Below are positions 1 through 58,814 of a DNA stretch of 64,000 nt, in pieces. The translations under genes and the position numbers were made by a program. Below the pieces are notes generated by a model, which ran no database searches, was not told the DNA's origin, and was given only the letters and a program-made list of their open reading frames with translations. Each line of letters starts with the position of its first letter. Position 1 is the stretch's first letter. The stretch lies in contig NC_057711.1 of assembly GCF_004010195.1 (NCBI RefSeq), positions 53,557,222 through 53,621,221 of the forward strand, read 5' to 3'. The stretch is from Chiloscyllium plagiosum. Lineage: Eukaryota.

Positions 1-1215
1 TCATACTGAAATATCAGAACTATATGATTAATGTTTTCTTTCTCTTGTTATTTCTTATCTCCCCCTCATAAGGCTTTTACATCATCAATCCAAGATCATT
101 TCTTGCTATTATACACCTTGCACCTTGCACCACCAAAGCAGTTCCCACCACCCTGACCTTCCTGACTGTTATTTCAAAAGGTCATATACCAAGTTCCCAG
201 TTTTAATCTCTTTTTAACTGGACCTCCATAATGGCTGTAAGATCATACCCATTTATCTCCATACCAATAACTCACTTTTTTAATGAATGCTACATGTATT
301 TAAGTATTTTGTGTTTTTTGTTAATTTTGTGTTTTTACAATTTTGCTCTCCCTTTGACCCTGTTTGCATCTTTAAAAATACTGGCACACTCTATCCCTTC
401 CTGTACCACTCTGCATTTTATTATTAAATTAGTTGAATGCCACCATATCATTTTGCTTTGTAAGCGTTTGTATCACCCTTCCCAAAGTCTTCCTCCTTCT
501 TGGAAAAATATCAGCGTCATTGGGTCAAAATCCTGAAATTCTTTTCCTAATAGCATTGTGGGTCCATTAACACCAAATGGACAGCAGCAGATTAAGAAGG
601 CAGCTTCTCAAAGGCAATTAGGAAAAGGCAATGAATCCAGTCAATGAAGCTCACTTTCTCAGAATGAATTTTTTTAAATGTTGTTCGATCTCCTAGCCCT
701 AGGGACACCCTGACATGAAACATTTTGATCATTTGTCGCAGGTCCCTTCTCATTTTTCATCTATTTGTAATTGAGGGAAATTAGCAGAGACAAAAAAACT
801 GCAGATACTGGAATCCAAAGTAGACAAACATGAGGTTGGAAGCACTCAGTAAGCAGCCAGCGTCAGAAGGTAGAAAAGTCAATGTTTCAGGTTATTAATC
901 CCTTTTGGGATTACTTCTAGAGTTGTTAGATTAAAAAGTAGTGAAGATGTTCTAAACCTGTATCAGTTGGTTTCTCCACATATGCAATATCGCAAGCAGT
1001 TCTATTTATTATACAATAACAAGGAACTGAAGAGAATGAAGGAGATTTACAAGGATGATAGCAGTAATGTGTAGGTATACAAATGGAATAGTTAACAGGC
1101 TGGACATGTTTGCTCAGGAAAAAATGTTATAGTGTGATTTAATACATATAAGATAAAATTATGAATTATCTTTCTGGTTGGTGACAAAAAGGATGATTTC
1201 TCTCCTGGGGAAGAG

Positions 1216-1443
1216 TTGATAAAGAGTGGAGCTGGAAAAAGCATAGCAGGTTAAGCAACATCAGAGGAGAAGGGGGGTCAACGTTTCAGATCGGAACCTT
1301 TTATCAGGATCTGACGACATTTTCTGACCTGAAACATTGACTCCCCTTGTCTACTGATGATGCTTGACCTGCTGTGCTTTTTCCAGCGCCACTTTTTACC
1401 CACTCTTATCCTCTAGCTTCTGCAGTTCCCACTATCTCCAAGA
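1216..1443. mobile_element. Older Penelope-like fold-back insertion with two decayed hammerhead cores
   Basis: Imperfect ~75-bp inverted arms (1222-1296 / 1322-1396); decayed CTGAYRA...GAAAC motifs on opposite strands; flanked by TCCTGGGGAAGAG (1203-1215) / TCCTGAGGAAGAG (1444-1456). Confidence 0.7.
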
Positions 1444-1456
1444 TCCTGAGGAAGAG

Positions 1457-1569
1457 GAGAAAGTGAGGTCTGCAGATGCTGGAGATCAGAGCTGAAAATG
1501 TGTTGCTGGATTCCTGAAGAAGGGCTTATGCCCGAAACGTCGATTCTCCTGTTCCCTGGATGCTGCCTG
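1457..1569 (+). mobile_element. 113-bp Penelope-like mini-insertion with hammerhead core
   Basis: Flanked by perfect 13-bp direct repeat TCCTGAGGAAGAG (1444-1456, 1570-1582); contains CTGAAGA-a-GGGC-ttat-GCCC-GAAA-cGTC at 1514-1541. Confidence 0.8.
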
Positions 1570-2219
1570 TCCTGAGGAAGAGCCCAACTAGAGGCCATAG
1601 AGGCTACCAATATAAAATCCAATGGGTAATTCATAAGAAATGTTTTCATCCACAGATTGGTGAGAATGTGAATTCAATAGTATAGAGAGTGGCCAGAAGG
1701 AATAGTCAAGATCTATTTAAGGGAAAAGTAGACAAGTGTATGGAAGAGAAGGGAATAGATATTTGCAACAGTGGATTTAATGGAAGATGGAATAAGGCAC
1801 AGAACATTAAGACCATCTTCCAAAAGTGTTCATTCTACTTCTGAAATATTTACATGAAAATAACCATTTCAGAAAATGACATCTCTTTGAGTGTTGGTTG
1901 TTTGCAAATTACTTAAGATTTTATTGCAAGATCTCTGCACAAGCTGTCTTTCAAAGTAGTTAGCATATTGGCTTCCAATTAATACAATGTTTACATCAGT
2001 TCCTCTGCTTTTAATTTCACGTTTTCCGAGAACAGAAAGATACTCAAATATTCAAAACACCTTCTACTCATCAGGCCAATATTCAAGAATGGTAATGTGA
2101 TGGGAACAGCAAAAAAAAAATCAGCATCCACTTTTCCAACCAATCAGCAGATGTTTCTCATCCAATATAAAAATGCTGTTCTCTTTTACATTGATATTTC
2201 TGAGAGTATGCTTGAGAGT

Positions 2220-2515: not shown

Positions 2516-4720
2516 GTGCAAAATGAAAAGGTTTGATAAAATTGTTCACATTGTTGAGTACATTAAATGTAAACTCAGGCAGATCCAAGGAAGGGCTCAA
2601 GCAGCTGAAGAAACAGTATTGTGTATATTGGGCTCTAAGCTTGATATATAGAAAGTCATAAATACATATACAGCATGTGTTTCCTATTGCTGGTTCTAAA
2701 TTTTAAATTTTAAATGCTCTGCGATTGATGAAATTGGTGCCACACTAGTTTATGGATTTTATCATCACTGGATGACAGGAACATGGTTCAAAAAGGATGG
2801 TAGTTGCTTTTAAAACTACAAATAGCTTTTGTTTCAGAAATATGGGATTCATTCATACAGACTCCTTTGTTAATCTCTATGTGCCACATTGAGAGTTTTT
2901 GGGGAGATCAAATCTAAACAACGTACTGCATTACTTACCTGTATCTTGCCATTCGATCAGTAACCAAATATTATAGATGACAGTAGGATTATAAATCTCA
3001 ACTAACACAATGCTGGTGCTCAAAGGAATTCGTCTGCAATATTAATGCCAGATTTTCAATTAATAGTTGCAAAGGAACCTATATTATGACTACAATGAGT
3101 TCTGTCTTCTGATACACCATATGAAACTAATTATAAAGAAAAAATGGTTCTTGATATTCACCAAGGTGAATCTAATGGGTGTAGCTCTACATAATTCTTA
3201 TGGTACCAGAACTCAATGCTTAGATTGAGTGGAAAATGAAAAATAGAAACATAGGAAACCAAATAACTTCTTCAATTAAATCCTATTAAAGTTTTCTGCA
3301 GTCGGCAAAATGTTTAACTTCTGCTCTGATGTTTGAAGATTACAAAACAGCTTTACACAGTTTGAAAAACAGCTTTTTGAAATTGCTAAGGTTTTTCCTG
3401 TACACAAAAAGTAGGTCAGTTTAAATCAGCCAATTACCACATCATCAGACTACTCTTGATCATCAGTAATGTGATGGAAGGGATCATCAACAATGTTGTC
3501 AAGCAGTGCTTAGCAATACTCTGCTCACTCACAATCAGTTTGGGTTCTGCCAGGGTCACTGAGATCCTGATCTCATTACTTAGATTAAATGTGGTGAAAA
3601 GAACAGGACTCCAGCGATGGGGTGAGAGTGACTGCCTTTGACATCAAAGCTGAAAATGTGTTGCTGGAAAAGCGCAGCAGGTCAGGCAGCATCCAAGGAG
3701 CAGGACCTGCATGCTGTTGTTTTCATTTATCAATATTAACTTATTTGCTAGAAATTAGGTCAGAACTGTTAGATTGTAGTTTATCTAACAAATTTACATG
3801 CATATTATTATCTCATTAAAATAAATGACAATGTACAGTTTAAAATAATACAGGTCTTGTACTGGTCAATTTATTTTTTGCTTTTAAAAATTACTGCAGT
3901 GTTTGTAAATTAAAAGATACGACTATTAATGAAAATGCAGTAATGGAAAATTCTGTCTGCATTCAGTAAATTGCAAATGCATACTTCATCATGTGCACTA
4001 CAAGGATTAGTCACAGAAAAATACCATAAACGTAATTTATGGCATACCCCTAAGTGTTAGCCAAAGTGTGGTCCCAAATAATTATATAACAATTATCCCT
4101 GTGAGTTTTAGAGAGGTACAATATATTAAGTAGGCAGAAGCTGTCATCATAAAATTAACAACCTTCTGTAGCTTCCTTTTATTTGTGTTAAATGTTTTAT
4201 ATTTCATAGTATAATTGGTTTAAAATCAATTTCATTGATTTAACACATTCAGCTCAGGCCACAAGCAGAGCTAACTATACATAAAATAGCATTCAGACTT
4301 CTTTGAAATAAAAGCACTTTTAGTTTCATAACGGCTACTTCTTGCTATCATAGAGCCAGTAAGATCCAGGAGATAAAACAAAACTATAAAATGTTATCTT
4401 TATTGTATGCAAAGCTCCAGTTCAGAATAATTAACTTAGAAAATAGCAGAAGTAAGAACATGATGAAACAAGAAACATAATGATATCTGTTTTTATGTAA
4501 TAATTAAAAATCAATTGTATTTTTGAGTTATTCATTATTTTAAATATTTAATATTATCGTGGTATAAATATACATAATTTACAAAGAGACATGCAAACTT
4601 ACAAAGCATTTCGTGAACCTGTAAACATGCTAAAGTAATTTAAAATTTTGGATTGGTATATGAAAATACAACAATAGATTTATAGAATAATTTTTCAAAT
4701 CCTTTATAAAGATGACTCAC

Positions 4721-4802: not shown

Positions 4803-6050
4803 CTTGAGTCTGTCTTCTCCTGGTTACATTCATGCAGTTCCCTGATACATGAATTACTCCAGCTCTGTACAGTGGTGTTGTGGAGGTCTAATAATGCAGC
4901 GTGGACCAGTAAGGTTTGTTTTACACATCTGCCAATCAGACACTGAATATTCTGAAAAGTCAACCAGAGGGGACCTTATCCCTGACTTACTTGCCTTTGA
5001 AATATAGTGAGCTAAATAGCTATATGATTGCCTGACAACTGCAATTTTTACTGTTTTATCCTACTTGATCTACATATTCACTGACAAACATCTAACCTTG
5101 TAAAGAAATGTGTCAGACCCAGTAGTCAAAGATTTTAGTTCTTTCATCATTTGAAGTACAGATATTTGTTTAATTATGGGGAGCTGAACATCTGTCTGAT
5201 TATGGTTGTCAGGAAAGTTAACAACAAACCTTTGTGCCTGCAAGAAAGAAATGGGATGAATTTAACATAAACTAGAAATATAATTGAGTCTCATCTGTAA
5301 CTTTGAGTCAGAAAATGTGCAGTGTATTTTCAGTTACATCAAGGTCAAAACTAGGCAGGGAATTATTTGCCTTTACCAAAGTAAGTCACTTCTCTTTCAT
5401 TGGCTGCCTTCTTGGTGGAAAAGTTGTTGCTAATCGGGATGAAAGTATAAACAGCATGGATCACCTCCATTTCATTCTGCACTCATCAAACCTCCTGAAC
5501 TCAATCCAGAGTGAATTGTTTTTCAAGTCTTTTCACCCATGTCTCAAAGTATAACATGACCTCAACTTTAAAACTTCACATCCTGACTGAGGGCTTAGAA
5601 TTTTCATGATTATCATCCTAAGTTGATTTGACATCAGTAAACTTTTGAACAGTTGAAATTTTTATTCATGTAACCTCTACATTATTTTTGAGGTCGACTA
5701 CTAAGACACAAGTTTAGAGAAATAAAAATAAAGCACCATATTTAGTTCAAAGTTTAATATGAATAGGATTAATTTCTGATTTTATTTCTTTAATTTCCAA
5801 GCAGAAATGTTACTGTGATTAGTCTACATAAACGTCATAAAAGTATTACATTTTATTTTTAAAAGTGCAATGACATTGCTGATGTTGGTAATCAATTATG
5901 AAATAATATTGATTCTTTCAGAGATCATCAACCTAAATGTTAACTCTATTCCTCTCTTCACAGATGCTGAAAGGCATAATGTGTGTTTCTGGCATTTTCT
6001 ATTTTAATTTTCTGTTTGCAGTTACGAACAGCTGCTCTTAAATTCACTAT

Positions 6051-7288: not shown

Positions 7289-7770
7289 GTGCCTTCCCAT
7301 TAAAGGGAAGTGCAAGGTACAATGGGATGAGGTCCTTTAAGGATCATTAATTGCATCTTCAGAGCATCAACTGGCAGCCTCACTGGAGATTTGTCCAAGT
7401 CCTCCCTCTTTTTAACTTCAGTAGGAGGCAGGAAGGTAGTGGGTTTCAGGCACATGGGATGACAATAAATTCCAGCCTCAAAATACTTAAGGACATATTG
7501 AACTTTTAACTACAAGTTATTCTGTTTTCTAAAAAAATGGCTGTATGTAGAATCATAGAATCCATACAGTTGGGAAGCAGGCCATTCAGCCCATTGAGTC
7601 CACGCTGTCTCTCAGAGATCTCTGAATGTCTCACCTAGAAGTCCACAAAGGAATTTCAGAGAAGCACTTCAAAGGAAAAGATACAATGCAAAACCCTAAA
7701 CCACGTCCTATGAATTACATCCCCAGACTATGAACATAATGTGAGGTAAATAAATGCAGTCTGTATACAT

Positions 7771-9420
7771 CCAGGGAAGTTATTTGGGTGGAACTGAGAA
7801 ATAAGAAAGGGATGATCACCTTATTGGGATTGTATTATAGATCCTCTAATAGTCAGAGGGAAATTGAGAAACAAACTTGTAAGAGGATCTCAGCTATCTG
7901 TAAGAATAATAGGGTAGTTATGATAGGGAATTTTAACTTACCAAACATCAATTGGGACTGCCATAGTGTTAAAGGTTTAGATGGAGAGGAATTTCTTAAG
8001 TACGTGCAAGACAATTTTCTGATTCAGTATGTGGATGTACCTACTAGAGAAGGTGCAAAACGTGGCCTACTCTTGGGAAATAAGGCAGGGCAGGTGACTG
8101 AGGTGTCAGTGGGGGAGCACTTTGGGGCCAGCGACCATAATTCTATTCGTTCTAAAATCGTGATGGAAAGGATAGACCAGATCCAGAAGTTGAAGTTCTA
8201 AATAGGAAAAAGGCCAATTTTGACTGTATTAGGCAAGAACTTTCGAAAGCTGACTGGGGGCAGATGTTCGCAGATAAAGGTACAGCTGGAAAATGGGAAG
8301 CCTTCAGAAATGAGATAACAAGAATCCAGAGAAAGTATATTCTTGTCAGGGTGAAAGGGAAGGCTGGTTGGTATAGGGAATGCTGGATGACTAAAGAAAT
8401 TGAGGGTTTGGTTAAGAAAAAGAAGGAAGCATATGTCAGGTATAGACAGGATAGATCGAGTGAATCCTTAGAAGAGTATAAAGAAAGTAGGAGTATACTT
8501 AAGAGGGAAATCAGGAAGACAAAAACGGGACATGAGATAGTTTTGGCAAATAGAGTTAAGGAGAATCCAAAGGGTTTTACAAATATATTAAGGATAAAAG
8601 GTTAACTATGGAGTGAATAGGGCCCCCCAAAGATCAGCAAGGCGGCCTTTGTGTGGAGCCACAGAAAATGGGGGAGATACTAAATGAATATTTTGCATCA
8701 GTATTTACTGTGGAAAAGGATATGGAAGATATAGACTGTAGGGAAATAGATGGTGACATCTTGCAAAATGTCTAGGTTACAGAGGAGGAAGTGCTGGATG
8801 TCTTGAAATGGTTAAAGGTGGATTAATCCCCAGGACATGATCAGGTATACCCGAGAATTCTGTGGGAAGCTAGAGAAGTGATTGCTGGGCCTCTTGCTGA
8901 AGTATTTGTATCATTGATAGTCACAGGTGAGGTGCCGGAAGACTGGAGGTTGGCAAACGTGGTGCCACTGTTTAAGAAGGGCAGTAAAGACAAGCCAGGG
9001 AACTACAGACCAGTGAGCCTGACCTCAGTAGTGGGTACGTTGTTGGAGGGAATCCTGAGTGACAGGATGTATATGTATTTGGAAAGGCATGGACTGATTA
9101 GGAATAGTCAACATGGCTTTGTGCGTGGGAAATCATGTCTCACAAACTTGATTGAGCTTTTTGAAGAAGTAACAAAGAAGATTGATGAGCTCAGAGCAGT
9201 AGATGTGATCTATATGGATTTCAGTAAGGCATTCGACAAGGTTCCCCATGGGAGACTGGTTAGCAAGGTTAGATCTCATGGAATACAGGGAGAACTAGCC
9301 ATTTGGATACAGAACTGGCTCAAAGGTAGAAGACAGAGGGTTTTTTTCAGACTGGAGGCCTGTGACGTGCCACAAGGATCGATGCTGGGTTCTCTACTTT
9401 TTGTCATTTACATAAATGAT
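7771..9420 (+). mobile_element. CR1-clade (HER1-like) LINE ORF2 fragment: AP endonuclease, linker and RT, running into an assembly gap
   Basis: ORFs 7788..8201 (GNFNLPNINW, SDHNSI), 8264..8605 and 8878.. (PGNYRPVSLTS, QHGF, YMDFSKAFDKVPH, VPQGS); frameshifted. Confidence 0.93.
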
Positions 9421-11182
9421 NNNNNNNNNNNNNNNNNNNNNNNNNNNNNNNNNNNNNNNNNNNNNNNNNNNNNNNNNNNNNNNNNNNNNNNNNNNNNNNN
9501 NNNNNNNNNNNNNNNNNNNNNNNNNNNNNNNNNNNNNNNNNNNNNNNNNNNNNNNNNNNNNNNNNNNNNNNNNNNNNNNNNNNNNNNNNNNNNNNNNNNN
9601 NNNNNNNNNNNNNNNNNNNNNNNNNNNNNNNNNNNNNNNNNNNNNNNNNNNNNNNNNNNNNNNNNNNNNNNNNNNNNNNNNNNNNNNNNNNNNNNNNNNN
9701 NNNNNNNNNNNNNNNNNNNNNNNNNNNNNNNNNNNNNNNNNNNNNNNNNNNNNNNNNNNNNNNNNNNNNNNNNNNNNNNNNNNNNNNNNNNNNNNNNNNN
9801 NNNNNNNNNNNNNNNNNNNNNNNNNNNNNNNNNNNNNNNNNNNNNNNNNNNNNNNNNNNNNNNNNNNNNNNNNNNNNNNNNNNNNNNNNNNNNNNNNNNN
9901 NNNNNNNNNNNNNNNNNNNNACATACACATGTTACCATCTCACCTCTTCAAATGCCTTACCCATCTTCAAACAGGCAATGAGAGAAGCCATGAAGTTCTA
10001 GAGAGAGATACAAATCTTTGAAGGTGTCATGATAGGTTAACACAAAGCAGTTAATAAAGTATGAAATCTGGGACTCTATAAATAGAGGCTTACAGGCACA
10101 ATTTGAACTGAATTGTCCTCACCCAGGAAGTGGGTCAGTCTAATGGTAAGAAGTAGCACCCACATATTGTAGACTTTAACTTCAACAAGTGTCACTGATG
10201 TCACTAGATTCTTCCCTGTTCAGACACCAGCTGAGCCTTCACTCAGAGGGGAAACCAGCCAATGATGGCCATAGCAGCATTTAGTCTCTGCTGTGGAAAG
10301 AGTGCTGATGGGGTGGCCCAACAAGCATGAGTATCTTGGCTGATTAGTGAAGGGGATGGGGGTCAATGGTATAATGTCTGACAGTGTTTGAACTTAAGAA
10401 ATTACTAGAGAGATAAATGAGCAGAGGTATTGATTGGAGGAGGGGGTGGGCCTGATCCAGTCCAGGACAGGGATGGTTGATCTGAGTAGGTGAAAGAGGG
10501 AGTCTTGGTTGGGTAAACTATTGGTCCCAAATACAGGTTGGAGGCCTCATATTGGGACAACTAGAGGACTTGGGGCCATGTGGAAATTTGGAGACATCAG
10601 AAGACATTAGGATATTTAGGGTGAAAAAGATTGGTGAATGGATTGGAATCTGAGGGAAGAGGTCAGATGTTTCTCTGTGTGGGCCTGGTATTAGAAGTCT
10701 AGGAATAAAAATTGGAGGCTGGAGAATGTATAACTGGAGATTTTGAGAGATGTAAGGCTGGGTTTAGAGAACAGGTAGAAGGGAAGGGATTGGGCCCTGA
10801 GAATGGAGGAGGGTAGAGGTCTCTTGGTGAGGATGGGGTTTTAGAGGACTTGGGGGTGTGGAGTTTTCAAAGTTCTGGCAGAGTTTGGTGTCTTAGAATT
10901 GGGGAAGTCAAGGGTCTGGTTGGGTGTGTTGAATCAGAGGCCTGGCAATGAAATTCGAAGGTCACTGTGGGATTACTGTGGGTGCGTGTGAGGCTGTACA
11001 AGGGGCTGCTAGAGACAGGTCACTTCACAGAAGCAGCAATCAGGCCCCACAGATCAAGGATCTCCTGATTCCACCAAATCCCTATCTTGAGGAAGCTGCT
11101 GGGATTATCTGACATTCAGGAAACCAGCTGACAGTGCTGAAAGCTTCAAACGTGAATTAAAATTGGGACCACAATCTCACAG

Positions 11183-11323
11183 AGAGAAAGTGAGGACGGT
11201 AGATGCTGGAGATCAGAGTCCTCTACAGACTCATTCCTGATGAAGGGCTTGTGCCCGAAACATCGATTCTCCTACTCCTCAGGTGCTGCCTGCCCTGCTG
11301 TGCTTTTCCAGCACCATACTCCC
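11183..11323 (+). mobile_element. 141-bp Penelope-like mini-insertion with hammerhead core
   Basis: Perfect 16-bp direct repeat GACCACAATCTCACAG (11167-11182, 11324-11339); core CTGATGA-a-GGGC-ttgt-GCCC-GAAA-cATC at 11237-11264; shares its first ~37 nt with the 1457 element. Confidence 0.8.
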
Positions 11324-11580
11324 GACCACAATCTCACAGTTATACTTCCAAGCTCCAAGCTTGGAAGCTCTGAATTCTTGCTTTAAGTTCCAAGCTCTCT
11401 CTTTAGAAATGCCATCCAGTTAATTACCTTTTGACCTCCTGGAATTGGAATCAGATTTGGTTGGGAAATGGAAATTTGAGGCTATCCTTTTACTCAACTC
11501 AAACCAACTCTTTTTTGTTTAACCTGAAAATCAACTCATGGAAGGCAAAAGCCAGGGAGTTATGGTAAACCTATAGTAAC

Positions 11581-11872
11581 TGTGGTATGGTTACTCAGTG
11601 GTATGCACTACTGCATCACAGTGGTAGGAATCCAGGTTTGATTCTTGCTTTGGTTGACTGTCTGGTGGAGCTTACATGTTCTCCCTGTGTCTATGTGGTT
11701 TTCCTTCGGGTGCTCTGCAGGCTAGGTGGATGGGCCATGGTAAGTTCTCCTTAATGTGCAGGTGGATTAGGCTTGGCAAATGCAGGATTATGGGGTTGGG
11801 TCGACACTCTATGAAGTGTCAGTACACACTTGATGGACCACAATGCCTTTTTCCACACTGTAGAGATTCTAT
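11581..11872 (+). mobile_element. Diverged HE1-like SINE
   Basis: Same layout as the 2220 copy with many substitutions. Confidence 0.75.
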
Positions 11873-12796
11873 AACATTACTTTGGCACAAGCTGATGTAT
11901 TGTGTCCAATTCTAGCCACTACATTTTATGAAAGATGTGCTAGTTTTGGAGAAGGTACACAGGAGATTTACAATTACGATCCTAGGGATGTGGGATTATA
12001 TTTATGTTGGCAGAAGTTTTCTTTCTTACGGTTATAACAGAGAGAATATTTGATAGAGATATTTAAAACCATGGGGCATTTAGAGTAAATAAAGTGAAAA
12101 TTGCTGAAGGTGAACGGTCAGTTATCACAGCACACAGACTATATTGTATAGTAACCATGCCAATTGAAAATTACACCCTATTACTGTCAATTTCATTTTT
12201 AGAAAGATATTATCCAGCTCTTTTTAAACTAAAGATCATTAATGTATTACTAATTACCTTTCGTAAAAGTCTGTTCCATATATCTACTCCTCCACATAGA
12301 ACATTAATTTCTAGAGACTGGAATTCTGCTGGGAGGTTGAAAAGTTGGTACAAATCAATCTCTACATGACTGGCAAACCCTGAACAGATGTTCCAGCTGT
12401 CAGTCTGTCAATTGTTCAGGTCATGACATCCACTGTCATCTAGGGGGGGGTAGCTCCACTTCTGAGAGCTGCTGGTCAATCAGACAGCTGGCAGCTCTCC
12501 AGTCCCTGCAGCACTTTCTGGAGGGGAGGCATCTACAGGCACTGCAGACAGTCTGCCAGGAGGAATGATCACTGGAGGCTGGATACAGAAGGTAAGTGGA
12601 GCAGTTTCACCACAGTCAGTTAGATCTTGGTGAGGATGACAGGGCATGTAGCGGCATGGCCAGATTATAGAGAATGAGAGGGGAGGACTACAGTGGGCAC
12701 ACTTCATCTGAATTGGAATTCACTGGTCCCTGGCCCCTGACCACCCACTGTGGGCCTGCAGAGAATAGCAAGAGCACTGTGAGGAGGCCCTTATGT

Positions 12797-13760
12797 TTTG
12801 TTTTTTTTTATTTCAAAATATACTTTATTCATAGAAATAGATCTTTGGTACTTGTACAATTTGTCATGTCGTTCATAGATATATACATTGCATGTCTTAA
12901 CATTACAAAGAACAGATTGAAATTAATCGAATTTACAGTTATCCTATTTACAGTTCCCTTTATTAACCATCCAGTCCCTTATTATTTAGCTGTGGCTTCA
13001 GCGGAGCCCACCTACTGAGTGGGCCCCCTGTTATACGATAGCAAAGGAACCTTCTTTAACCCCCAGTTTATGGGGTTACCANNNNNNNNNNNNNNNNNNN
13101 NNNNNNNNNNNNNNNNNNNNNNNNNNNNNNNNNNNNNNNNNNNNNNNNNNNNNNNNNNNNNNNNNNNNNNNNNNNNNNNNNNNNNNNNNNNNNNNNNNNN
13201 NNNNNNNNNNNNNNNNNNNNNNNNNNNNNNNNNNNNNNNNNNNNNNNNNNNNNNNNNNNNNNNNNNNNNNNNNNNNNNNNNNNNNNNNNNNNNNNNNNNN
13301 NNNNNNNNNNNNNNNNNNNNNNNNNNNNNNNNNNNNNNNNNNNNNNNNNNNNNNNNNNNNNNNNNNNNNNNNNNNNNNNNNNNNNNNNNNNNNNNNNNNN
13401 NNNNNNNNNNNNNNNNNNNNNNNNNNNNNNNNNNNNNNNNNNNNNNNNNNNNNNNNNNNNNNNNNNNNNNNNNNNNNNNNNNNNNNNNNNNNNNNNNNNN
13501 NNNNNNNNNNNNNNNNNNNNNNNNNNNNNNNNGCACCGTCCAGTTCTGTGTCTGACAATGGGACTGTCAGAGGATCGCAGCTCTCAGTTACCTGTAGTTG
13601 TGGGGCAGTGGGTACCCCCTGGTTCTTACTGGGTGGAGGGTGGACTTCGGGGGGTCCGTTGTTTCCTGGTTGGGAGGAAATGCCCTCCTCTTTACCTACG
13701 GCGCTCTGTCTCTTCTTCTGGTGGTGATGACCTTCTTTGCGCCCGTCTTCCCCTTATGTA
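12797..13760 (-). mobile_element. Probable L1/Tx1-clade element 3' end spanning a gap
   Basis: Minus strand ends AATAAAGTATATTTTGAAATAAAAAAAAA (poly-A signal plus A tail); GC-richer sequence on both sides of the gap; no protein motif readable. Confidence 0.4.
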
Positions 13761-24083: not shown

Positions 24084-27000
24084 TATAATGAGACAGAGTA
24101 CAGGAAAGATAGCTTAGTGGCATGGTGTAAAGTCAACAATCTCTTCCCAGAGGTCCGAACATCCTTGACCATTACTGTACGATGATCAGAGATGCCTACA
24201 ACTCCATTCCCCACTCGCATTTTGGAAAATCAGATCACAACGCTGTGCTCCTCCTCCAGGTTTATAGCCAGAAACTGAAGCAGGAGGACCTAATACAGGA
24301 AGTAGCGCAGTATTGATTTGAGGCTTCTATGGGACTGATTAGAACATTCCACTAACTCTAATTTCAAGAAATCAGTAGGTCATCTAAATCAGTATGCCAT
24401 TACTATTAAAGACTTCAGAGACATTAATCCAGAAACCTTTGATGAACCAGGAGATCGACTCCCTACTGAAGTCCAAGTCTGAGGCATTCAAGTTGGGCAA
24501 TCCTGACCTATACAGAAAATCTAGGTATGAATTTCGCAAGGCCACCAGAGCACCAAAGTGAGGACGAGAACCCAGGCTAACCACAAGGATACCTGTCATT
24601 TGGTGCAAGGCTTACGCAACATAATGGGCTACAAAGTGAACTCAAACAGATACACAGTCAATAAAACATCCCTACCTGATGGGTTCAATGTATTTTATGC
24701 TCACTTCTGAACAGAAGATCAGTGAAACAATACCACCTGTCCCAACAGCCTTGGAGACACCAACACCCAAGGTCACCCATGGAAAGTGACTGGTCTGGAT
24801 GGAGTCCCAGCTGCACACTCAGACCCTGTGTAGACCAGATGGTGGGAGTATTCACTGACATCTTTAACATCTCCTTACTATAATCTGAAGTCCCCACCTG
24901 CCTCAAGAAGACCACCATCATCCTAGTGGCAAAAAATATCAGGCAGCATGCCTTAATGACTACTGCCTGGCTCTGACCTCCGACCCCCATAATTATGAAA
25001 TGCTTCCAGAGGCTAGTCATGGCTCACACCAACTCCCAGCCTACCAAATCGCCATGATTCTTTGCAATTCCTGTGCTGTCACATCGAGGTCCACCGTAGA
25101 ACCCATCTTCCTGGCCCTACGTTCATCCTTGAAATATCTAGATAACAAGGATATCCATGTCAGGCTCCTACTTATTGACTACAGCTCCGCCTTCAACATC
25201 ATAGTTCCAAACTCATCTCCAAACTCAGACCTAGATTTTGGCTCCTCTCTCTGTAACTGGATCCTCAATTTCCTAACCATAGAACACAATCAGTAAGAAT
25301 AAACAACACCTCCTCCACAATAATCCTGAACACCAATGCTCCTCAAGACTGTGTACTCAAACCCCTACTATACTTACTCCTTACACACTCACGACTCTCT
25401 GGCCAAATTCTGCCCCAACTCCATTTACATGTTTGCTGACATCATGGTTGTAGGTCAGATCTCAAACAACAATGAGACAGAGTACAGGAAAGATATTAAG
25501 TACTTAGCAGCATGGTGCAAAGACAATCTCACCATCAACATCAGCAAAATGAAGAATCTAGTCATTGACTTCAGCAAGCTGTTATGAAGATGGGGGTATA
25601 ATGTATCTTTAAGAGACTTAGAAGCTAGCAGAACCATGTGACAGCACCAAGCGTTTCCAATAAGGTAACAATTTAACACTTGGTCAAAAGCTAGATTAAC
25701 TGGTTTGCATGGAAACAAAACAGATTTGAATTAGGCCATGCAGTTTAAATTATACCCTGAAAAATACCAAATTGTAATCAAATTTGTCAATATACTAAAT
25801 TCAATCTTAAAAGCCAAATGACACAATCCAATGTTTTGGGGGTATAAAACAATGGAAAATTGAACAGTTGGGAGGAGAACTTCCAAGCCACCAGCCTGTA
25901 AAGGCTGCCCAAAAATAGCTCTCTTAAAAAGGTACCTTTATCGATCTGTAACAGGTGAAGCAGAATCCCCAAGACGACAGGAATATAGACATGGTTTGGA
26001 GAGAAGTAGTTTTGTTTTGTAAATCTAAATTTGGATTTTTATCCGACCAGTATTGTAGAGGGGAAAGTAAAAGATAGGTTAGAGGAAGAAGTTGTAGTAT
26101 TCTCGGTTATACTTTAAGAAATGAAGTGGTTAAATTTTTACTTTAAGTAGTTCTTGGCTTCTTGAACTTTCACATATTACTGTATAGGACAAATCCTTTC
26201 TCTGTTGCTGGTTTAAATTAAGCGGGGGGGGGGGGTTACCCCATGTCGTAACAGTTTGGGGGCTCATCGCCAGGATTTGAACTGATTTAGACAGATTTGA
26301 ATAGATTTGGGGGTATGAAAAATCCCAGCAAATTTAAACGCTTGCAGGTTAGTGTCCCAGATCTTTAAATAAAACATAGGTGAGGCAATTTGTTTAATTT
26401 CAGTGACTGGTGGTTGAGTAAATTAAAAGCAATAGAAATTTCATGGCCTCTTGAATTTTCACAGATTACTGCATGGGATAAATCTTTTGTGTTGCTGGTT
26501 TAAATTAAGCAGGAAGATTTAACTAATGTTGTAACAAAGCAGATTGGAGTACATGCCTGTCTTCATCAATGTTGTAGAGATGTAGAGATGGTCAAGAGCA
26601 TCAAATTCCTAGGACCAAATATCACCAATAATCTGTCCAAGTCCATCCATGTTGACCAACACCTACAAAGACTCTTTCCAATTTTTATTGATGCACATTG
26701 AAAGCATCTTGTCTGGATACTTTTATAGCTTGATACGGAAACTGCTCTGCCCAAGAAATTACTAAGAGTTGTGAATGCAGCCCAATCCATCATGCAAACC
26801 AACCTTCTATCTATTGACTCCATCTATACTTCCCGCTGCCTTGGGAAAACACCGAACAGTTTCAAAGACCCCTCCCACCCCCAGATATACTCTCTTCCAT
26901 TGGGCAGAAGATATAAAAATTTGAAAATACATACCAACTATTTCAAGAACAGCTTCTTCCCTGCTGTTAACAGAATTTTGAACAGACCATTCATATAGGA

Positions 27001-28014: not shown

Positions 28015-29679
28015 GTATTACGTTTTAATGTAGAGGGAGGAAAAACAAAGTGCAGAACGATGTCTACTATAAATAGTAAAGTAAGATCAATTGCAGTTTA
28101 AAGTTCTAAGAGCCCTTGAGATGTAAGAAAAAGCTGAGTCCTTGTTATTTGGTTGTTAACTTGTTTCTTCAGCAGTGACAAAGTTTGCTGACATCCTTGT
28201 GTTTGTGAATGGCTGTTGTCTCAATTTACTTTTTATAAATGGATGAAGCACATCTGCAGTGTTTCACTAGTATCAATCCAGATTTCAGATACCTTTAAAT
28301 CAACCTGCTATGATGTATCATGACATACTTCTAGAACAGCTGGGACTTGAACCTGGGCCTTCTAGCTCAGATGTAGGGACACTACCACTGTCCCAAAGCA
28401 ATACTTGTTCATTATTATTACACAATCTTATTTCTCTCTAGTCAAGTGATTATGCAAACCCTTTCAGGTTAAACTTCTGTCTGTTTTTTTTCCCAAAAGT
28501 CACTTGTAGTCCATGAAAGGCATCTGTTCTGTATTGCTAATTGCCCTTGAGAAGCAGACTCACCAGCAGCTGCTCAAGAGCAATTAGCAATACAGAACAG
28601 ATTCTGTCCCTAAGCAGTTAAAAGATAAAACCAGCATAAGCCCGTTAGAACATAGAACAAAATAACCAATGGTGGTTTAACCGGAGGGTCACCACACCTC
28701 ATGAGGTTAGGAGAATCCTTCATGGTAACTCAGCTGATGCAAAAATTGAACCTATGCAGCTGATGTTACGCTTGATCAAAACCAGCTGTTCAACCAACTG
28801 AGCTAACCAACTCCCAATCCATAGCCTAAGCAGTAACCCCTAACAAAAAAAACCTTAAGCCAAACTTTTGCTCAGTCAATTACAGAATTGTAATGACTGC
28901 CATTATAGTAAAACTTCTCAACTCTGCAAATGCATGTTTATGAGTGGTTAGTAAAAAGACAAAGCACAAGAACGACGCATTTAAAGTTCCTTCTCATCAT
29001 ACAGATGTGTGCATAATTAGAAACATGGAAATGGACAGTCATTTACATTCAAAATATGGAAAGATATGGAGAGAGACACAACTGTTTATGGGAAAAATAT
29101 GGCTTTAAAATTTCACACAGTTAAGTTGTACTCGTGTACACAAAACAGAAATTCAGAAAAAGACAAGAATGTTCTTGGCAGTACTTTTTTTTATTATAGT
29201 TGAGGTGTGTACTGGTAAAATACAAATTACTCCATACAGAATGTAAAGGTGAAGTGGAAGAATAACTTCAATGTGACAGAACATTATTAAAATAGTATTA
29301 CACCAAGTTGGTGCAGCGAGCGGAGTACAATAGAATATGGCCCAACTATAAAGACTTGTTAACCATGACATTACTTAACCAACCAAACATTCTGAAACAG
29401 ACAGTTATGGAAGATCCAATTCAGATCTACGTGTGTTCCAACTTTTGTACAAGTCCTAATGTCATTACTGGCATTTGGCTGTTGTCCTTATATTTTGCTG
29501 TACTCCATCTTCAAAATTGATCAGGGTTATAATGAAGTGGCAAATGGTAATCATTTAGCTTAGAATATTGAGTGCTTGAAACTGAAACAGCAGAACAATA
29601 ACAGTAGTGTATTATGGAGAAGTTAAAATATATTTGTTTTAACATGCTGATCAACATGAAATAGAAGTCACAGTTTTAC

Positions 29680-30405: not shown

Positions 30406-31959
30406 TAAGAAATATGAAAAGGATGCAAAAGAAGAAGTGAAATATAACGTTGGCTAAGATTTGCAGCTGATGATAAATGAAGAGTGTTGAAGAATAAAGG
30501 GTGCAGGTACTGTTGCCAAAATTTGCTATCCGATTTAATGAAACTAGTGTGTGCTGGTAGCCACGAGGTAATTAACCTTAAGTAAGTAACAAAGACCATT
30601 ACCATGTTATGTTTAACAGACACAGTACACACTGTAGAAACTCAGCAGGTCTGGCAGCATCAGTAGATAGAGAAATGGAAAATGTTGACTCTGATATGAC
30701 GACTTCAGAAGATTTTGAGAGTCAGATGGTGAATTTTACATTCCACAACTGCAAACCTGCAAAAGGAAATTATAACAAAGGAGGAAGAGAAAAAAAAAGG
30801 AGCAAATGGAGGGAGATGTGCACCCTGGGAGATTAACGCAACAATCAATGAACAACATAATTTTCAAATTTGGGCCTAATGCAAACCTAACATAAATAAA
30901 CCTATGTATCTCAAAGCAACATGCTGTGCATTCAACAACCTCAGCCTAAATTGTTTACTTAATCTGGCCCTTTTCAGCTATGTACACTAAAGATGACAAT
31001 GCTTATTAACTTACTTACAGTGTGAAACGCTTCAAGTGCCTTTCCCTTTGCTTTCCAATGGATAGGCACTAAAATGTACCCTGTCTAATTCCTAAGCTAG
31101 CATTATTATCTGATTATTTTCAAGCCCCATCTTAGCTCTGTTGAGAGAGGAGTTACAGTTTATGGAACTAGATTGGCATTCAGCAATAAAATGAAAGCCA
31201 TATACTTTGGATGCTTAACTCACCATCACTTTAAGGACAACTAGGGATAGGCAATAAATGGAACTTGGGTGGTATTCAATGTATTGACATTTGAATTAAA
31301 AGGCAATGCAATTCCCCAAAGTGCTATCTGCAGATATGTTAAACATGTGAACTGAAGCAGATTTAAAAAACCATCCATTCACATCTGGAACCTGGTCTCA
31401 AATCAGCCTAGACTAGACTAATGGGATAACTGTCTCTAGTCTCTTGACTGCGAAGATCAGCCTGAAAAATATCACCCCAGTTTATACGACATGTAGACCT
31501 ACTGCTCAGAACTTACTTAATTCAGTAATTGTTACATTTTCACAAACAAAAAACATTGTTCTGTTGGAAATGAAAACACAAGTTTGTAACTGTGAGTAGT
31601 GGCAAAGAATTTTCATATCAGAAATATTACACTAATCGGACTTTCACTCTGCAGTTAAACATGAGATTAAACGAGCTGCAAAATATCTGTGGGATTGACA
31701 TTTGTGATAATGGATATACAAGATCAGAAATGGATATGAATGCCAATCTTTAAAATTAGTCTCAAATTCTAAATTTAGATGTTCTCTTTAACAGTTGTTT
31801 TAAAAATTGAATAAAAACACTTTGAGATGATAATGTGCTTTTATATAGGAAATGTTAACAATTGAAATATACAGAAATCACCACAAATTAATTTTTACAT
31901 TTACACTGTATTCACTTGATTGGAACTTCTTGCAATTTTTGAATTTTAATAAGCTCCTT

Positions 31960-34260: not shown

Positions 34261-36681
34261 AAATATTTATCATTTGTCATTGGTTTCAGTTTGATACTTG
34301 GATCAGAATTCTTTCTCAAAGTCATGTTTTCAAAATAGCACTTTCAATCTTGTGGCACTCCATTGGTAATTGGCAACCAAACAAATGGATGTTCATTTGC
34401 TACTACTTGTTCCTGACTATTACCCAACTAATTTAGTACATTCTTAACTATCCCACTGCCTTGGACTTTAGGCAGTCACCAATTATTTGTTGTTTCACAT
34501 GTCTTCCTTAAATCCAGGCAGATAACATTTATGATTTTCCTGGAAAGCAATCCAATAAACTAATTAGAGACACAATCTCTCATAATTAAAAGCTTGCTAA
34601 TGGTATCAGATTATCCCTTAAAATTATCAGCTAGAATATCTTGAAATATGAAGAGCAAATACAGATTTCACGGGTCTATAAATTGGTGTCTCATGCCTCA
34701 TCCATTTTTTGAAGATGGGGACAATTTGCTATAAAGATTGGGCCCAAGCCCACTTCTATATTTTCAAGCATATCTTCACTTTTAGTGAGTCAACTCCTCC
34801 TTGCATTCTTTATGTTCTTTTTCATTCTTTAGCGTTCCACTTTATGCTTGTGTTGGCATTCCCAATTAATCCTCTTTGCAGCCTTCCGTTTGGTCACTAC
34901 TTAGCCTTTGTTGATCTTGTTACCCTCAAATGTTATTTTCTATTACATTCTACCTCATGCCTTTCAAGTATCTAGTCTAGTCTCCTTATAATTTTTATTG
35001 GAAGAATCAAGTTCCTCCTAATTGGAATACATTCCTGTATGTGGTACTCATCCACTTTATAGTTTTCCGTAAAACTGCATTGAAAACTGCAAGATTGACT
35101 TTGCAATGTAATTAAGTTTGTCAACTCTATAGTTGGAATAGCCTACACAGCAAATACACGGTCTTCAGAATTTTATCATTCATTACTTTTGCTCTGTAGG
35201 TTAGTCTACAACGATGTTGTTATTACACTTTTTGCAACTGCACCAACTCAAAATATTGAAGCAATCTTTCAGGAATAAACTCCACCAGAGCACATCAATA
35301 CTCTATCTATTCATGCATTCCTCACACAGAAATCTAAATATTAACTATGTTGATATGAAAACAGCAATAATAATAACTGTACATCAACAGTACAGAGGAG
35401 AACTAACTGGCACAGGAAGCTATTATTCATTATTAATCTATTCAAAAAGGGGAAACCTACCCAGATGACCTTCTAGTGAACTCACTAGTCATGATCACAA
35501 TATTCCAAAGTTAAATGACAGACTTCAGTCATAGGAATGGAATACCTGATTTTTAGTCAGTACAGTGGAAATATTAATAAAACAAGTTTCTGCTTGCTAT
35601 CAATATCCACTGACCTCTACACACAAATGGTACAAGAACAAAGCTGGGCTCAAACTAAGCCATAGGCAAGGATAAAAATTCTACTTTAAAAAAATATGGG
35701 ATGTAGAAACAATATGGATGTAAAAGTATGTCTTTACTCCTCCTTCCCAAACTAAATGACCTACTATTTCAAAGAATATCTTGGAAAATAGAACATATTG
35801 GATACAATAATCTGTACAGAAATGACTTAGCATGCTAGAGATTTCATGAACTACAGGACCACTAACTTTTTAATATATTAATTCAGGAGATATGGACTAT
35901 TGCTCATCCCTCTATGCTCTTGTGAAGGTGCCTTCTTTAACTACTGCAGTCCATTTAGTGTAGGAACAATGCTGTTAAGGAGAGAGTTTCAGTATTTTGA
36001 TACTGAAGGAGTGCGTGGATAAGGGCGATGAGTGGTTTGGTTGGGAACATGCCAGTAGAGATGTTTCTACGTATTGACTGTCTGTGTCTTCGTTGATGGT
36101 AATGGCTGAGAGTTTGAAAGGTGCTGAATGGAGGAGAGTTTGTGAATTTCCGGCAGACAGTACATGCTGCTGCTACTGTGCATCGGTGGGAGTGGATGTT
36201 TGTAGAAATAGTCCCTATAGTCACTTTGCTTTGTCCTGAATGGTGTCAAGCATAAGAGTTGTTGGATTTCAGGCAAGTGGAGAGTATTCCATCATACTCT
36301 TGACTTGTGCTTCAGAATGCAGAAAAGAATGCCTTGCAGATAGTCGACAAGCTTTGCGCACAAGTTACCTGCTACAATTTCCCAGCCACTAACTTGCTCT
36401 TGTAGCTACAGTACATACTTAATACATTCAATTTCTGGTCAATAGTAACCCCTAGGATGTTGAAAGTGCAGCTTTTAGCAATAGTGATGGTATAGCTTAC
36501 AAGTGCATTGCATAACTTTTTAATAGATTGATCTGCAAATTGGTCTGCAGATCACTGAACACCAGAGAGGAAAAGGAAAACTTCAGCGAAACCATATGGA
36601 CAAAACATATCCAATATAAATAATGCGCTAAAGAAAGACATAAAGATGATACAAATCACAAAACCGCTGAATTAGTAGTAC

Positions 36682-48744: not shown

Positions 48745-48969
<225 letters not shown>

Positions 48970-54245: not shown

Positions 54246-56049
54246 TATGCCTCTTCAACCTCCCTTAAATATCCAATACAGATTTTAAAGGATAAACATT
54301 ATATTAAAGATGACCTTTTCTCCCTACACCTTAAGTGGACGTAGTTTGAAAGTTCATGCACCTCTATACTTCATTGAAATCATATTGAAAAGTCACTCAT
54401 GAGTTGGCACAAAAGCTAGCATCATAATGTTCTACTCAATAATATTATAAAATTTATAAAAATGACCACTTGGCAAGGCAGGAATCTGGCTGCTGGCTCA
54501 GTTAGGACCTATTGAGTATTTAAAATTTTAGATTTCCAGCATCTGCAGTATTTGGCTTTTGTAATTATATTTAATTCAGTCCCAGTTCTCTTCCAGGAAT
54601 TTGCTGAAATTTGTATTTGTCTTTTTTGCCTTCTACAGTATACTATTATTGCTTCTTTTAGCAATCTTTATTTCTGATATACACTCCATGAATTCCAACT
54701 GAAATTTCTTCTGCTGTGTTTCAGATTCAATAATGATTATAGATATCCATAGTTTTTTGTTGAGTCACTGCTCTCACTGTATTCCAAATGTCATACACTG
54801 CCACATTCACCCTCTCACTTCAACTATCAAAAAACTGTCCTGATCCACAGTTTCATTTCATTCGTCATCTTATAATGCTTTTGAGAAAAAAAGCTTTCCT
54901 TTAGGTGTCAGGGATTGTAGGCTTCAATAACTCTAAGTTACTAATGCCCCCACACAGATCTCTTTCCTTTTCTCTTTCCTCATATCGCTTACCTTCTTCC
55001 AATGTCAGCCTTCAGCAAAGGCCTTAGCTTCATTTCCTACTTCGATTAATTGCAGAATTAGGCATAAGACAGTTTTTCTTTTGTGCATTTGCCTTCACGT
55101 TCACTTTTTTGGCTAACAGCATTCCTACACACAGTCGGTCTTTTCTTTCATCTTTAAAAAGTTCCATTCTATCCGGATGCCTCCTTCAGGTCACATAGCC
55201 TCTCACTGAATCCCTAGAATCACAGAGTGCAGATAGAGGCAATTCAGCCCATACAGACTGCACCAACCCTCTGAAGAGCATTCCACACTATCCAGGTCTT
55301 TTTTATTGATAACCATTAAGTGTGACATCAAGTGTCTCATTTTTGGTGCTCTGATCACACATTTCAACTTCTCTAATTTTATGAAATAGGAACAGGAGTA
55401 GGCTGCTGGACCCTTCCAGCCCGTTCCACCATTCAATAGGATCATGGCTGGTCTGACATTCGTCACAACCACTTTCCTGTCTTTTAATTTGCCGCTCTCT
55501 TCTGTCAGATCTAGCTTTAACGTCTTTAAATCTGAGAAGCTCTTTTGGTGGTGAATTAAACTCTACCCCTCATCTTCCGCCTCGGAACACTTCAACTCCA
55601 GGGCATCAATGTGGACTTCAACATTTTCTTTGCTCCTCGGATGCTGCCTGAACTGCTGTGCTCTTCCAGCATCACTAATCCAGAATCTGGTTTCCAGCAT
55701 CTGCAATCATTGTTTTTACCTAATCTCTACCCTAGTCAAGCATCAACTGTCCAATACCACTTTCCAGCTCTCCCAAACAATGGCCACATCACCGAAAGTC
55801 AAGCCTTCAACTGCCAAGTTGTTACTAATCTCAGTTAAAATCTCTGAAGTCCTGCCAGGAAATGCCTCCAACTTGTTTCCAATACTTTAATGCCAATATC
55901 AGTACCATTTCCAGCTCTCAATACAAACTGGGAAATTTTGCAAACTGCACCTCCCTTTTTGTTTCCCTTCCATTATCGCCATTTCTGGGATAAGCTACTG
56001 ACCAATAATTATTTTACACTTATTGATTCCCTGAGTTTCTAGACTATGC

Positions 56050-57446: not shown

Positions 57447-57605
57447 CGCTGCGACCGGGATGAGAAAACTGGAATTTCAATCCGTTTATGCTAGAGTATG
57501 GAGAGACAGAAAACCCAAGGCCTTCCGGAACTACCAGAAGTACCGGGCCGACTCGACTGCACATGCGCACTCACTACCAGGTCCTCGAAGATACTTAATA
57601 AAATT

Positions 57606-57790
57606 CAAAGTTAAAAATCACACAACACCGGGTTATAGTCCAACAGGTTTAATTGGAAGCACACTAGCTTTCGGAGCGACGCTCCTTCATCAGGTGATTG
57701 TGCTTCCAATTAAACCTGTTGGACTATAACCCGGTGTTGTGTGATTTTTAACTTTGTACACCCCAGTCCAACACCGGCATCTCCAAATCA
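57606..57790. mobile_element. Penelope-like mini-insertion: perfect 58-bp inverted repeat with hammerhead core in the loop
   Basis: Arms 57606-57663 and 57699-57756 are exact reverse complements. Near-TSD TAATAAAATTC (57596-57606) / TAATAACATTC (57791-57801). Confidence 0.8.
57660..57702 (-). ncRNA. Minimal type I hammerhead ribozyme motif
   Basis: Minus strand reads cac-CTGATGA-a-GGAGC-gtc-GCTCC-GAAA-gc-TA-gtg: intact core, 5-bp stem II, palindromic AGCT in place of stem III, CUA cleavage triplet. Confidence 0.72.
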
Positions 57791-58109
57791 TAATAACATT
57801 CACAATTCGGTCGAAACAACAAGCACGATCTCTAAAGACTTGTACAGCATATGATTTTAATGTTATGATTTGAAACAATGACATTATGATTTAAGTACGG
57901 GTCCAATAGGCATGTTTCGCTGTGTTAGGTTTGTGTTTTATGTGCTGCCAGGGCCTGGGGACGGTTGGTGTGTTTGAAGGCAGTTGGGCTCGCGCACTCG
58001 GATCGCTGATCTTCGGAGTTTATCCCGGTCACAGGTTACACTCATGTCCTCCTTCAGAAACAATAGGGGCCAAGGTCTGCAGCCGAAGATCCCGGTGCGT
58101 ACTTATCCG

Positions 58110-58555: not shown

Positions 58556-58814
58556 AAAACAATAAGTCAGGCAGAAAAAAAATAGTAATTGCTGGAGAAA
58601 CTCACCAGGTTTGGTAGTATCTGTGGAGAGAAAGCAGAGTCAACATTTCGAGCAGAATAGGCAAACGCAGGTGTATTGAGTTCGGTCACAGATCAATCAA
58701 GAAATCAGTGGTGAGTTTCTTGTGGTGCAGTGGTATTGTTCCCTATAGGTGAGCTAAAAGGCCCTGGTCAAATCCCACTTGCTCTAAAGCTGTGTATCTC
58801 TGAAGAGGTTGGTT

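Follow-up and report, generated by a model that had tools for sequence, protein, structure and literature searches.

We propose that the short hammerhead-bearing inserts in a 64-kb stretch of Chiloscyllium plagiosum DNA (hereafter the window, meaning the whole stretch that was analysed) are dead-on-arrival stubs of the terminal module of a Neptune-type, EN-bearing Penelope-like element (PLE), laid down by dual priming. This is the best explanation of the data as a whole, and we assign it a probability of roughly 0.8. The terminal module is a pLTR with a minimal hammerhead followed by a tail of about 36 nt, and its parent PLE is extremely abundant in bamboo sharks. That the inserts, which are about 110-190 bases long, represent PLE-end insertions of some kind is highly probable in its own right. 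Stubs of this sort with minimal hammerheads are an ordinary class; the abutting arms and the cluster of arm starts described below are modest mechanistic leads.

Structure of the insert at 11167-11339

The insert proper occupies 141 bp (11183-11323) between perfect 16-nt direct repeats, which constitute the left (11167..11182, + strand) and right (11324..11339, +) copies of a target-site duplication (TSD). The two copies are 100% identical (16/16 in our TSD finder), and pairs of 16-mers within 300 nt were found in 0/50 block-shuffled windows, which bears out the description of this insert in the first-pass annotation. The TSD is read from this direct repeat rather than from comparison with an unoccupied allele, and the insert is also present in organism C. 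Among the 15 joints listed (91 further joints exist), none represents an empty site. The left junction is bridged in run X1 (to 11213) and in organism C (run X18, to 11216, with 26 differences plus 23 gap letters in 517), and organism B comes close to bridging it (29 letters). It follows that the insertion is old and common to these organisms.

Positions within the family A unit are numbered from the hammerhead C3 as 0, which places cleavage after +27. The inverted arm (11183..11220, -) consists only of the PLE tail of about 36 nt (unit +87 to +123), with 11183 as a single unmatched base. It is delimited by joints between opposite strands, from 11217-11221 to 11311-11326, and by a peak of loose ends before 11184. 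Such joints were seen in contigs from three organisms and in RNA reads. They show that, in the family unit, the right arm runs straight on into sequence of which the left arm is the reverse complement. The opposite-strand joint 11217/11326 has exactly 3 letters in common. Other joints from the region (e.g., to 11278-11298), taken as hammerhead-less junctions, were dropped as ambiguous because their strand was not given.

The sense arm (11221..11326, +; unit -16 to +89) carries about 14-16 nt of upstream family sequence, the hammerhead, and the pLTR body up to the start of the tail, and its final 3 nt (GAC) are common to the arm and the TSD. The bases just above the core can be assigned to the family because two X18 contig records from other loci match from 11223 and 11225. 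The tail-primed arm halts exactly at the second start site, with the arms overlapping by 3 nt.

Related inserts in the window

A second insert proper of 113 bp (1457-1569) lies between perfect 13-nt repeats at 1444..1456 and 1570..1582 (both +; 13/13 in the TSD finder), as had also been noted in the first pass. Pairs of 13-mers within 300 nt occur in 14/50 block-shuffled windows; the 1444/1570 pair, however, bounds homologous sequence exactly. Its inverted arm (1457..1510, -; unit +70 to +122) comprises the tail plus about 17 nt of pLTR body, and its sense arm (1510..1574, +; unit -4 to about +55/+60) ends at an internal site that overlaps the TSD. The second arm ends about 30 nt short of the tail start, and a gap of 9-14 nt separates the tail-primed arm from the second priming site. 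The start that this insert has in common with the one at 11167 is indeed the reverse complement of the family tail.

The left TSD copy of the 1457 insert doubles as the right TSD copy of an older fold-back insert of a related subfamily (1203..1456; TSD 1203-1215/1444-1456, 12/13). The tail-less arm (1211-1309, -) and the tail-bearing arm (1310-1439, +) of this older insert both hold decayed cores, and across 1211-1439 they overlap as inverted arms of 97 nt with 80% identity. A further fold-back at 57596..57802, with a TSD at 57596-57607/57791-57802 (11/12), is a PLE end of unrelated sequence. It is composed of a core-bearing, tail-less arm (57606-57698, -) and a core-less arm (57699-57791, +) with a 35-nt tail (57757-57791), and within 57606-57791 the inverted arms overlap over 58 nt at 100%. 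Its core arm has only the hammerhead core in common with family A, in keeping with the earlier proposal that this insert repeats the inverted layout with unrelated sequence. Family A is also represented by a single hammerhead-less arm (3637..3706, -; unit +33 to about the tail start), for which no TSD was found.

Several properties recur among these inserts. An inverted, 5'-truncated copy is adjacent head to head in all four two-armed inserts (4/4), and both outer ends of each are RNA-3'-side ends that abut a TSD copy. An extension of 35-37 nt is found on one arm only at 11167, 1211, and 57606 (30-37 nt as a wider range for 1211 and 57606). The arms abut in two of the four inverted inserts (11167 and 1457) and overlap widely in the other two (1211 and 57606). 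The arm geometry is different in every copy, and therefore the mini-element of the first-pass annotation is not an inverted unit that is copied as such. For the five bounded inserts, the TSD finder gave 16/16, 13/13, 12/13, 11/12, and 11/12 matches (TSDs of 12-16 bp, 5/5); among 149 random control sites, 12 matches were reached at 1 and 11 matches at 4. A profile built from 12 of 13 aligned arms gave 17 matches at E<0.03 in the 64-kb window (13 from the alignment itself, 12 of them used to build the profile) and 0 in the reversed window. Most of these matches are older single-arm relics without a TSD.

EN+ PLE insertions are known to carry an inverted, 5'-truncated pLTR, an optional tail of 30-40 bp on one arm, and a TSD of 8-10 bp (PMC3846280; PMC8557442). 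The head-to-head arms, one-sided tail, and TSDs of the shark inserts match this published signature, and the suggestion that they were made by Penelope-type RT/GIY-YIG machinery is well founded.

Hammerhead cores and arm starts

A scan of the window for CTGAnGA-stem-GAAA with a stem of at least 3 bp gave four matches, at 1514 (+), 11237 (+), 57693 (-), and 21539, the last being a loose match with a stem of only 3 bp. The scan thereby recovered the minimal hammerhead cores that had been noticed in both the 1457 and 11167 inserts. In all three cores (3/3), the core boxes are accompanied by a bulged base, a G10.1-C11.1 pair, and the absence of loop 3, as in the minimal hammerheads (min-HHRs) of metazoan PLEs. 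Helix I has 2-3 contiguous pairs and helix III lacks a loop, and these are not canonical type I hammerheads with contacts between loops 1 and 2. Rfam gave 0 matches at the gathering threshold over the window and no hammerhead up to E=10 over 11100-11400, and single-strand folding was unexceptional (z of -0.6 to -1.7).

The sense arm of the 1457 insert has an intact minimal core (1514-1541, +), and the hammerhead of the 57606 insert lies at 57693-57665 (-). The palindromic 15.2/16.2 pair is kept in these two and lost at 11237 (2/3 cores). The minimal type I core in the latter insert (11237..11264, +) has a bulged A and a helix II of 4 bp, and cleavage would follow 11264. Its 15.2/16.2 positions are C.A and do not pair; the core is predicted to be inactive, and this copy is therefore probably dead.

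The five core-bearing arms of the four inverted inserts start at -14/-16, -4, -2, -1, and -5 relative to the core. The first-pass annotation had placed the inversion junction a few nucleotides 5' of the catalytic core each time. This statement applies to four of the five arms, namely those of 1457, 1211 (both arms), and 57606, which begin 1-5 nt above the core. The exception is the 11167 insert, whose arm begins about 14-16 nt 5' of it. Random 5' truncation would not be expected to concentrate arm starts directly above the core. Moreover, all five core-bearing arms (5/5) reach 28-44 nt 5' of the cleavage site, and they were therefore copied from uncleaved RNA. The only hint of a cleaved template is the core-less arm at 57699, whose start lies 1-5 nt beyond a cleavage site. 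We take the ribozyme to be carried along rather than to cut out the unit: in these arms the core is retained whole on the 5' side of the cleavage site, and the outer ends coincide with the tail edges or with an internal site. The earlier idea of a ribozyme-defined RNA consequently does not hold.

A possible link to an autonomous element

An insert at 55557..55732 (+), flanked by a TSD (11/12), joins a 20-codon, Neptune-like GIY-YIG C-terminus to a pLTR and tail. The peptide is encoded at 55569-55628 and is followed by a hammerhead-less, family-A-like pLTR and tail at about 55627-55721 (+). Over 70 nt this module, which belongs to a sister subfamily, has 81% identity with the 11167 unit. By eye, the peptide is identical at 8/14 positions to each of the EN ends of Neptune-1_Ac and Neptune1_Nv and unlike the Penelope/Poseidon ends (Fig. 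S2 of PMC8557442). Searches with the peptide gave no match in Pfam (0), among homologues, or in the Atlas. There were three phmmer matches, and both of the two inspected were bacterial Ig/cadherin repeats and were rejected. Exact words of the peptide and four shark genus names are absent from the supplement of PMC8557442, and no RT fragment was recognised among ORFs of at least 120 aa in the window. The link to an ORF through one 20-codon peptide of a sister subfamily, matched by eye without database confirmation, is suggestive only. Penelope elements have been listed for the whale shark (PMC8455134).

Family-wide ends and transcripts

The region 10700-11570 is matched at 82% likeness by 35,410, 38,738, and 38,753 contigs in runs X1, X12, and X18, which represent three organisms. 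The summed depth is 2-6 million over the insert versus 5-46 in the flanks, a figure that does not translate into a number of copies. Loose ends whose flanks are AT-rich and unlike one another accumulate before 11184 (1224/1315/1414 contigs, agreement 0.36-0.37) and behind 11316/11321 (288 contigs in X1 and 252 in X12). These peaks are the two edges of the PLE tail, family-wide.

A third group of loose ends lies before 11230-11233 in the three shark runs, with 237-461 contigs for each entry among those listed (720 further entries exist). At 11233, where 431-461 contigs end per DNA run, the flanks are long, AT-rich, and unlike (agreement 0.30-0.31). The flanks at 11230 and 11232 (DNA) and at 11233 (RNA) share a consensus that resembles the upstream body of other subfamilies and is C-rich at 11230/11232. 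Such upstream body sequence is joined to the terminal module in many other copies. Real truncation therefore makes up one part of the peak and an alignment edge the other.

About 2% of a polyA single-cell RNA run (X21) yielded 2,486 matching reads on both strands, with a bias of about 2:1. None was 99% alike and none lay on the flanks, and the reads therefore come from other copies. No place had many molecule starts or ends in this run, a polyA library being unsuited to short cleaved or circular RNA. No RNA data set was listed for 10000-12900, a result that argues neither way. 

A dual-priming model

The following mechanism is rather probable, with less assurance than the classification of the inserts as PLE ends. 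The spacing of the TSD copies suggests that a GIY-YIG nuclease would nick the two strands at points 12-16 nt apart, so that two 3' overhangs remain. Both 3'-OH ends would then prime reverse transcription on uncleaved element RNA, one cDNA starting at the outer edge of the tail and the other at its inner edge or at a nearby internal site. RNA-3'-side ends at both TSD copies would be expected because each of the two overhangs is proposed to prime a cDNA. Joining of the two short cDNAs head to head would make the inversion anew at each insertion.

Biochemical precedent comes from PAc, a PLE of the anole. In vitro, both target strands are cut and extended, and two internal RT start sites delimit the tail (PMC11167929). 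In the same system, hammerhead cleavage is dispensable, unprocessed RNA is the substrate, and initiation proceeds without target homology (PMC11167929). Carrying over the both-strand extension and the two tail-bounding starts from the anole to the shark element is plausible by analogy. In the shark, the second priming site may be aided by microhomology of 2-5 nt. Overlaps between target and element at the tail-less end measure 3 nt (11167), 5 nt (1211), and 2 nt (57606), and that at 1457 measures 4 nt behind one mismatch. A product of the odds of these microhomologies (6e-7) was not used as a test; it was calculated after the fact and scores the overlap at 1457 as a full 4 nt although the last base of the primer is mismatched.

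At 11167 and 1457, the tail-primed cDNA would have stopped at the second priming site or with 9-14 nt still to go, the arrangement known from L1 twin priming. By this analogy, and on the basis of two of the four inserts, the abutting arms look like twin priming on one RNA. The overlapping arms of 1211 and 57606 might reflect two templates or strand displacement. That both cDNAs were primed on the same RNA falls slightly short of an even chance. The other cDNA, which usually ends 1-5 nt above the core, may most simply have run off at the 5' end of the RNA, Penelope being known to have an internal promoter (PMC2377424), or may have stalled there.

A more specific version is speculative and, in our judgement, unlikely. 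In this version, the dominant template of the Neptune PLE in sharks would be a short RNA that extends from 4-5 nt above the core to past the tail, and a protein dimer would prime both target ends on the same RNA at the tail edges. The short RNA might derive from a solo-pLTR, SINE-like parasite or from a 5' run-off of the mRNA. If true, the abutting inserts would document same-template twin priming in PLEs from genomic sequence for the first time, and the tail signature would be accounted for in vivo.

Alternative explanations

The same dual priming might act mainly on a dedicated short non-autonomous RNA of about 130 nt, running from just above the core to the tail and made by solo pLTR master loci, such that the family would be a SINE-like parasite of PLEs. 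Starts at -1 to -5 in 4/5 core-bearing arms of the four inverted inserts are what such an RNA would give, as are the 431-461 contigs per DNA run that end at 11233 with flanks looking like those of the true tail end, and the very high abundance. Non-autonomous pLTR derivatives have also been reported (PMC8557442; bioRxiv 10.64898/2026.07.22.740005). However, the 11230-11233 peak is partly an alignment edge where other subfamilies run on into different body sequence, the 11167 insert starts at -14 to -16, and the insert at 55569 carries ORF sequence. Furthermore, the same starts are predicted if reverse transcription simply runs off a normal full-length mRNA in its 5' pLTR. We therefore regard a dedicated short RNA as the main template as quite unlikely.

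A different origin of the inversion is fold-back or self-priming on an antisense transcript, as proposed in PMC3846280, or repair after a single TPRT event. Head-to-head palindromic junctions are read in this manner in PMC3846280; 1211 and 57606 are true inverted duplications, and family RNA reads occur on both strands. Against this, the inserts at 11167 and 1457 duplicate no sequence beyond 3 nt, and there is therefore no stem on which to fold back. Both outer ends are also RNA-3'-side ends that abut TSD copies, and priming on both strands has been demonstrated in vitro (PMC11167929). Taken together, these points make fold-back or repair a very unlikely source of the inverted layout. Still more improbable, to the point of being nearly negligible, is the retrozyme-like system envisaged in the first-pass annotation, in which hammerhead self-cleavage would free a short linear or circular RNA that is then reverse-transcribed and inserted. 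In its favour, the cores are real and two of three have the palindromic 15.2/16.2 pair; a start 1-5 nt past the cleavage site is seen in the core-less arm of 57606, and an arm at 55633 may likewise begin close behind one. Monomers and long TSDs have been reported for vertebrate retrozymes (PMC7229834; bioRxiv 10.64898/2026.07.22.740005). However, in 5/5 core-bearing arms the copied sequence goes on for 28-44 nt to the 5' side of the cleavage site, and the boundaries of the unit are the edges of the PLE tail (or an internal site) rather than the point of cleavage. No tandem hammerhead repeat was present among four TRF rows or in a self-comparison of the window. The hammerheads are minimal rather than canonical, with a broken 15.2/16.2 pair at 11237, and X21, a weak test with 2,486 reads from about 2% of a polyA run, gave no peak of starts or ends.

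Comparison with known systems

The shark inserts resemble canonical EN+ PLEs (Penelope/Poseidon and Neptune; Arkhipova 2013, PMC3846280; Craig 2021, PMC8557442) in their head-to-head arms, a tail of 35-37 nt on one arm only, the TSD, the hammerhead in the pLTR, and strong 5' truncation. They differ in that the arms are cut to 36-130 nt without an ORF and abut rather than duplicate in 2/4 inserts. The TSDs of 12-16 bp are also longer than the 8-10 bp of the rotifer EN+ examples (PMC3846280). With PAc, the Poseidon element of Anolis carolinensis (Frangieh 2024, PMC11167929), they have in common AT-rich flanks and an uncleaved template, and would share two RT starts that bound the tail and the extension of both target strands. 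They differ in clade, their EN end looking Neptune-like, and in target overlaps of 2-5 nt at the second site where PAc initiates without homology; no start of the ORF was located in the shark pLTR.

The min-HHRs of metazoan PLEs are mostly single motifs from truncated elements, with some close pairs on opposite strands (PMC4209133). Shark cores match them in the core boxes, a bulged base between 9 and 10.1, G10.1-C11.1, the absence of loop 3, the palindromic 15.2/16.2 pair (at 1514 and 57693), and a weak helix I (Cervera & de la Pena 2014, PMC4209133). Helix II, in contrast, has 4-5 bp rather than 7-8, and the 11237 copy is without the 15.2/16.2 pair.

The retrozymes of animals are built of tandem units that carry canonical hammerheads, and circular RNA is their expressed form (PMC7229834); a 2026 preprint describes retrozymes derived from pLTRs, one chondrichthyan among them (bioRxiv 10.64898/2026.07.22.740005). 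Non-LTR retrozymes (Cervera & de la Pena 2020, PMC7229834; Li, Clavereau & Pollet, bioRxiv 10.64898/2026.07.22.740005) are, like the shark inserts, short, non-coding, hammerhead-bearing, and pLTR-related, with long TSDs and hosts that include vertebrates and one chondrichthyan. The shark inserts nevertheless lack head-to-tail units and a canonical type I hammerhead, their ends lie away from the cleavage site, and their two arms are inverted. L1 twin or dual priming (Meyer 2010, PMC2837659) offers another parallel, namely a TSD around two inverted, non-overlapping fragments with a small internal deletion and target microhomology, as at 11167 and 1457. The shark inserts differ from it in having no poly(A) and in being primed at the edges of the PLE tail.

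The possibility raised in the first pass that these inserts form an undescribed class has not stood up, as PLEs with this layout are already in the literature (PMC3846280, PMC8557442, PMC11167929), as are retrozymes of vertebrates that derive from pLTRs (PMC7229834; bioRxiv 10.64898/2026.07.22.740005). In listings of the open-access literature, nothing came up on this shark family or on twin priming by PLEs. The family may already be listed in the GenBank file of PMC11167929 or in the retrozyme consensus tables of bioRxiv 10.64898/2026.07.22.740005.

Pattern scans for other copies gave 0 matches in metagenome contigs, 0 in viral contigs, and 0 in a first scan of genome contigs. A 19-mer produced 75 prokaryotic matches in genome contigs; at 8 of these 75 loci the window was matched over only 21-34 nt, and the matches were set aside as chance.

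Much about PLE integration has yet to be understood, and so abundant a shark family makes many independent two-ended insertions available. These could reveal whether priming of both cDNAs occurs on one RNA, whether the second site makes use of short stretches of homology to the target, and at which point the template RNA begins. The family is also relevant to the annotation of shark repeats. The 64-kb window itself is repeat-rich and has three N gaps, and it holds an exon (36681-37181, -) whose identity with RIOK2 is 99% in Chiloscyllium plagiosum and 92-94% in other bamboo sharks.

Target reuse and insert junctions

One 13-nt target has been duplicated two times, leaving copies at 1203-1215, 1444-1456 and 1570-1582. 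The first duplication was made by the older fold-back at 1211, which consists of two inverted arms, and the second by the younger 113-bp two-armed insert at 1457. The younger insert lies in the opposite orientation, 4 nt beyond the tail of the older fold-back, and it apparently reused the nick positions of its predecessor.

The fold-back at 57606 derives from a Penelope-like element (PLE) end of unrelated sequence. At its arm junction (57694-57703), the core-less arm begins 1-5 nt past the predicted cleavage site and adjoins the helix I side of the opposite arm. This starting point might reflect either a cleaved template or joining guided by helix I, and both are possible.

At the left edge of the 141-bp insert at 11167 (11180-11184), the consensus of the loose contig ends closes with CTAG ahead of the tail end in all three DNA runs. 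Either the unit is 4 nt longer in some copies or the CTAG reflects a target preference. Immediately to the right of the target site duplication (TSD) of this insert is a perfect 10-nt inverted repeat (11345-11367). Among the contigs listed, those of organisms B and C restart only from 11381, which suggests a lineage-specific change around 11345-11367.

Other repeats and genes in the window

A further TSD-flanked insert (55557-55732) carries a PLE endonuclease-like C-terminus fused straight to the pLTR, omitting the 3′ UTR and the hammerhead. Older single-arm relics of related PLE-end subfamilies, which have no recognisable TSDs, are located at 791-903, 5933-6011, 30620-30715, 47005-47053, 48334-48355, 48905-48987, 54531-54552, 58572-58659 and 60003-60047.

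Nested inverted and direct repeats at 37984-38313 (236 nt at 89% and 93 nt at 80%) are unrelated to the hammerhead families. An 81-nt palindrome akin to 583-624 (28522-28602) and an inverted repeat with 51-nt arms at 88% (60230-60430) each lie within another repeat family. Broken frames, putatively LINE ORF2-like (CR1-like and others), occur at 7740-9420, 42123-42593, 61257-61655 and 24889-25296, and a RIOK2 coding exon with 99% identity to Chiloscyllium plagiosum occupies 36681-37181 on the minus strand.
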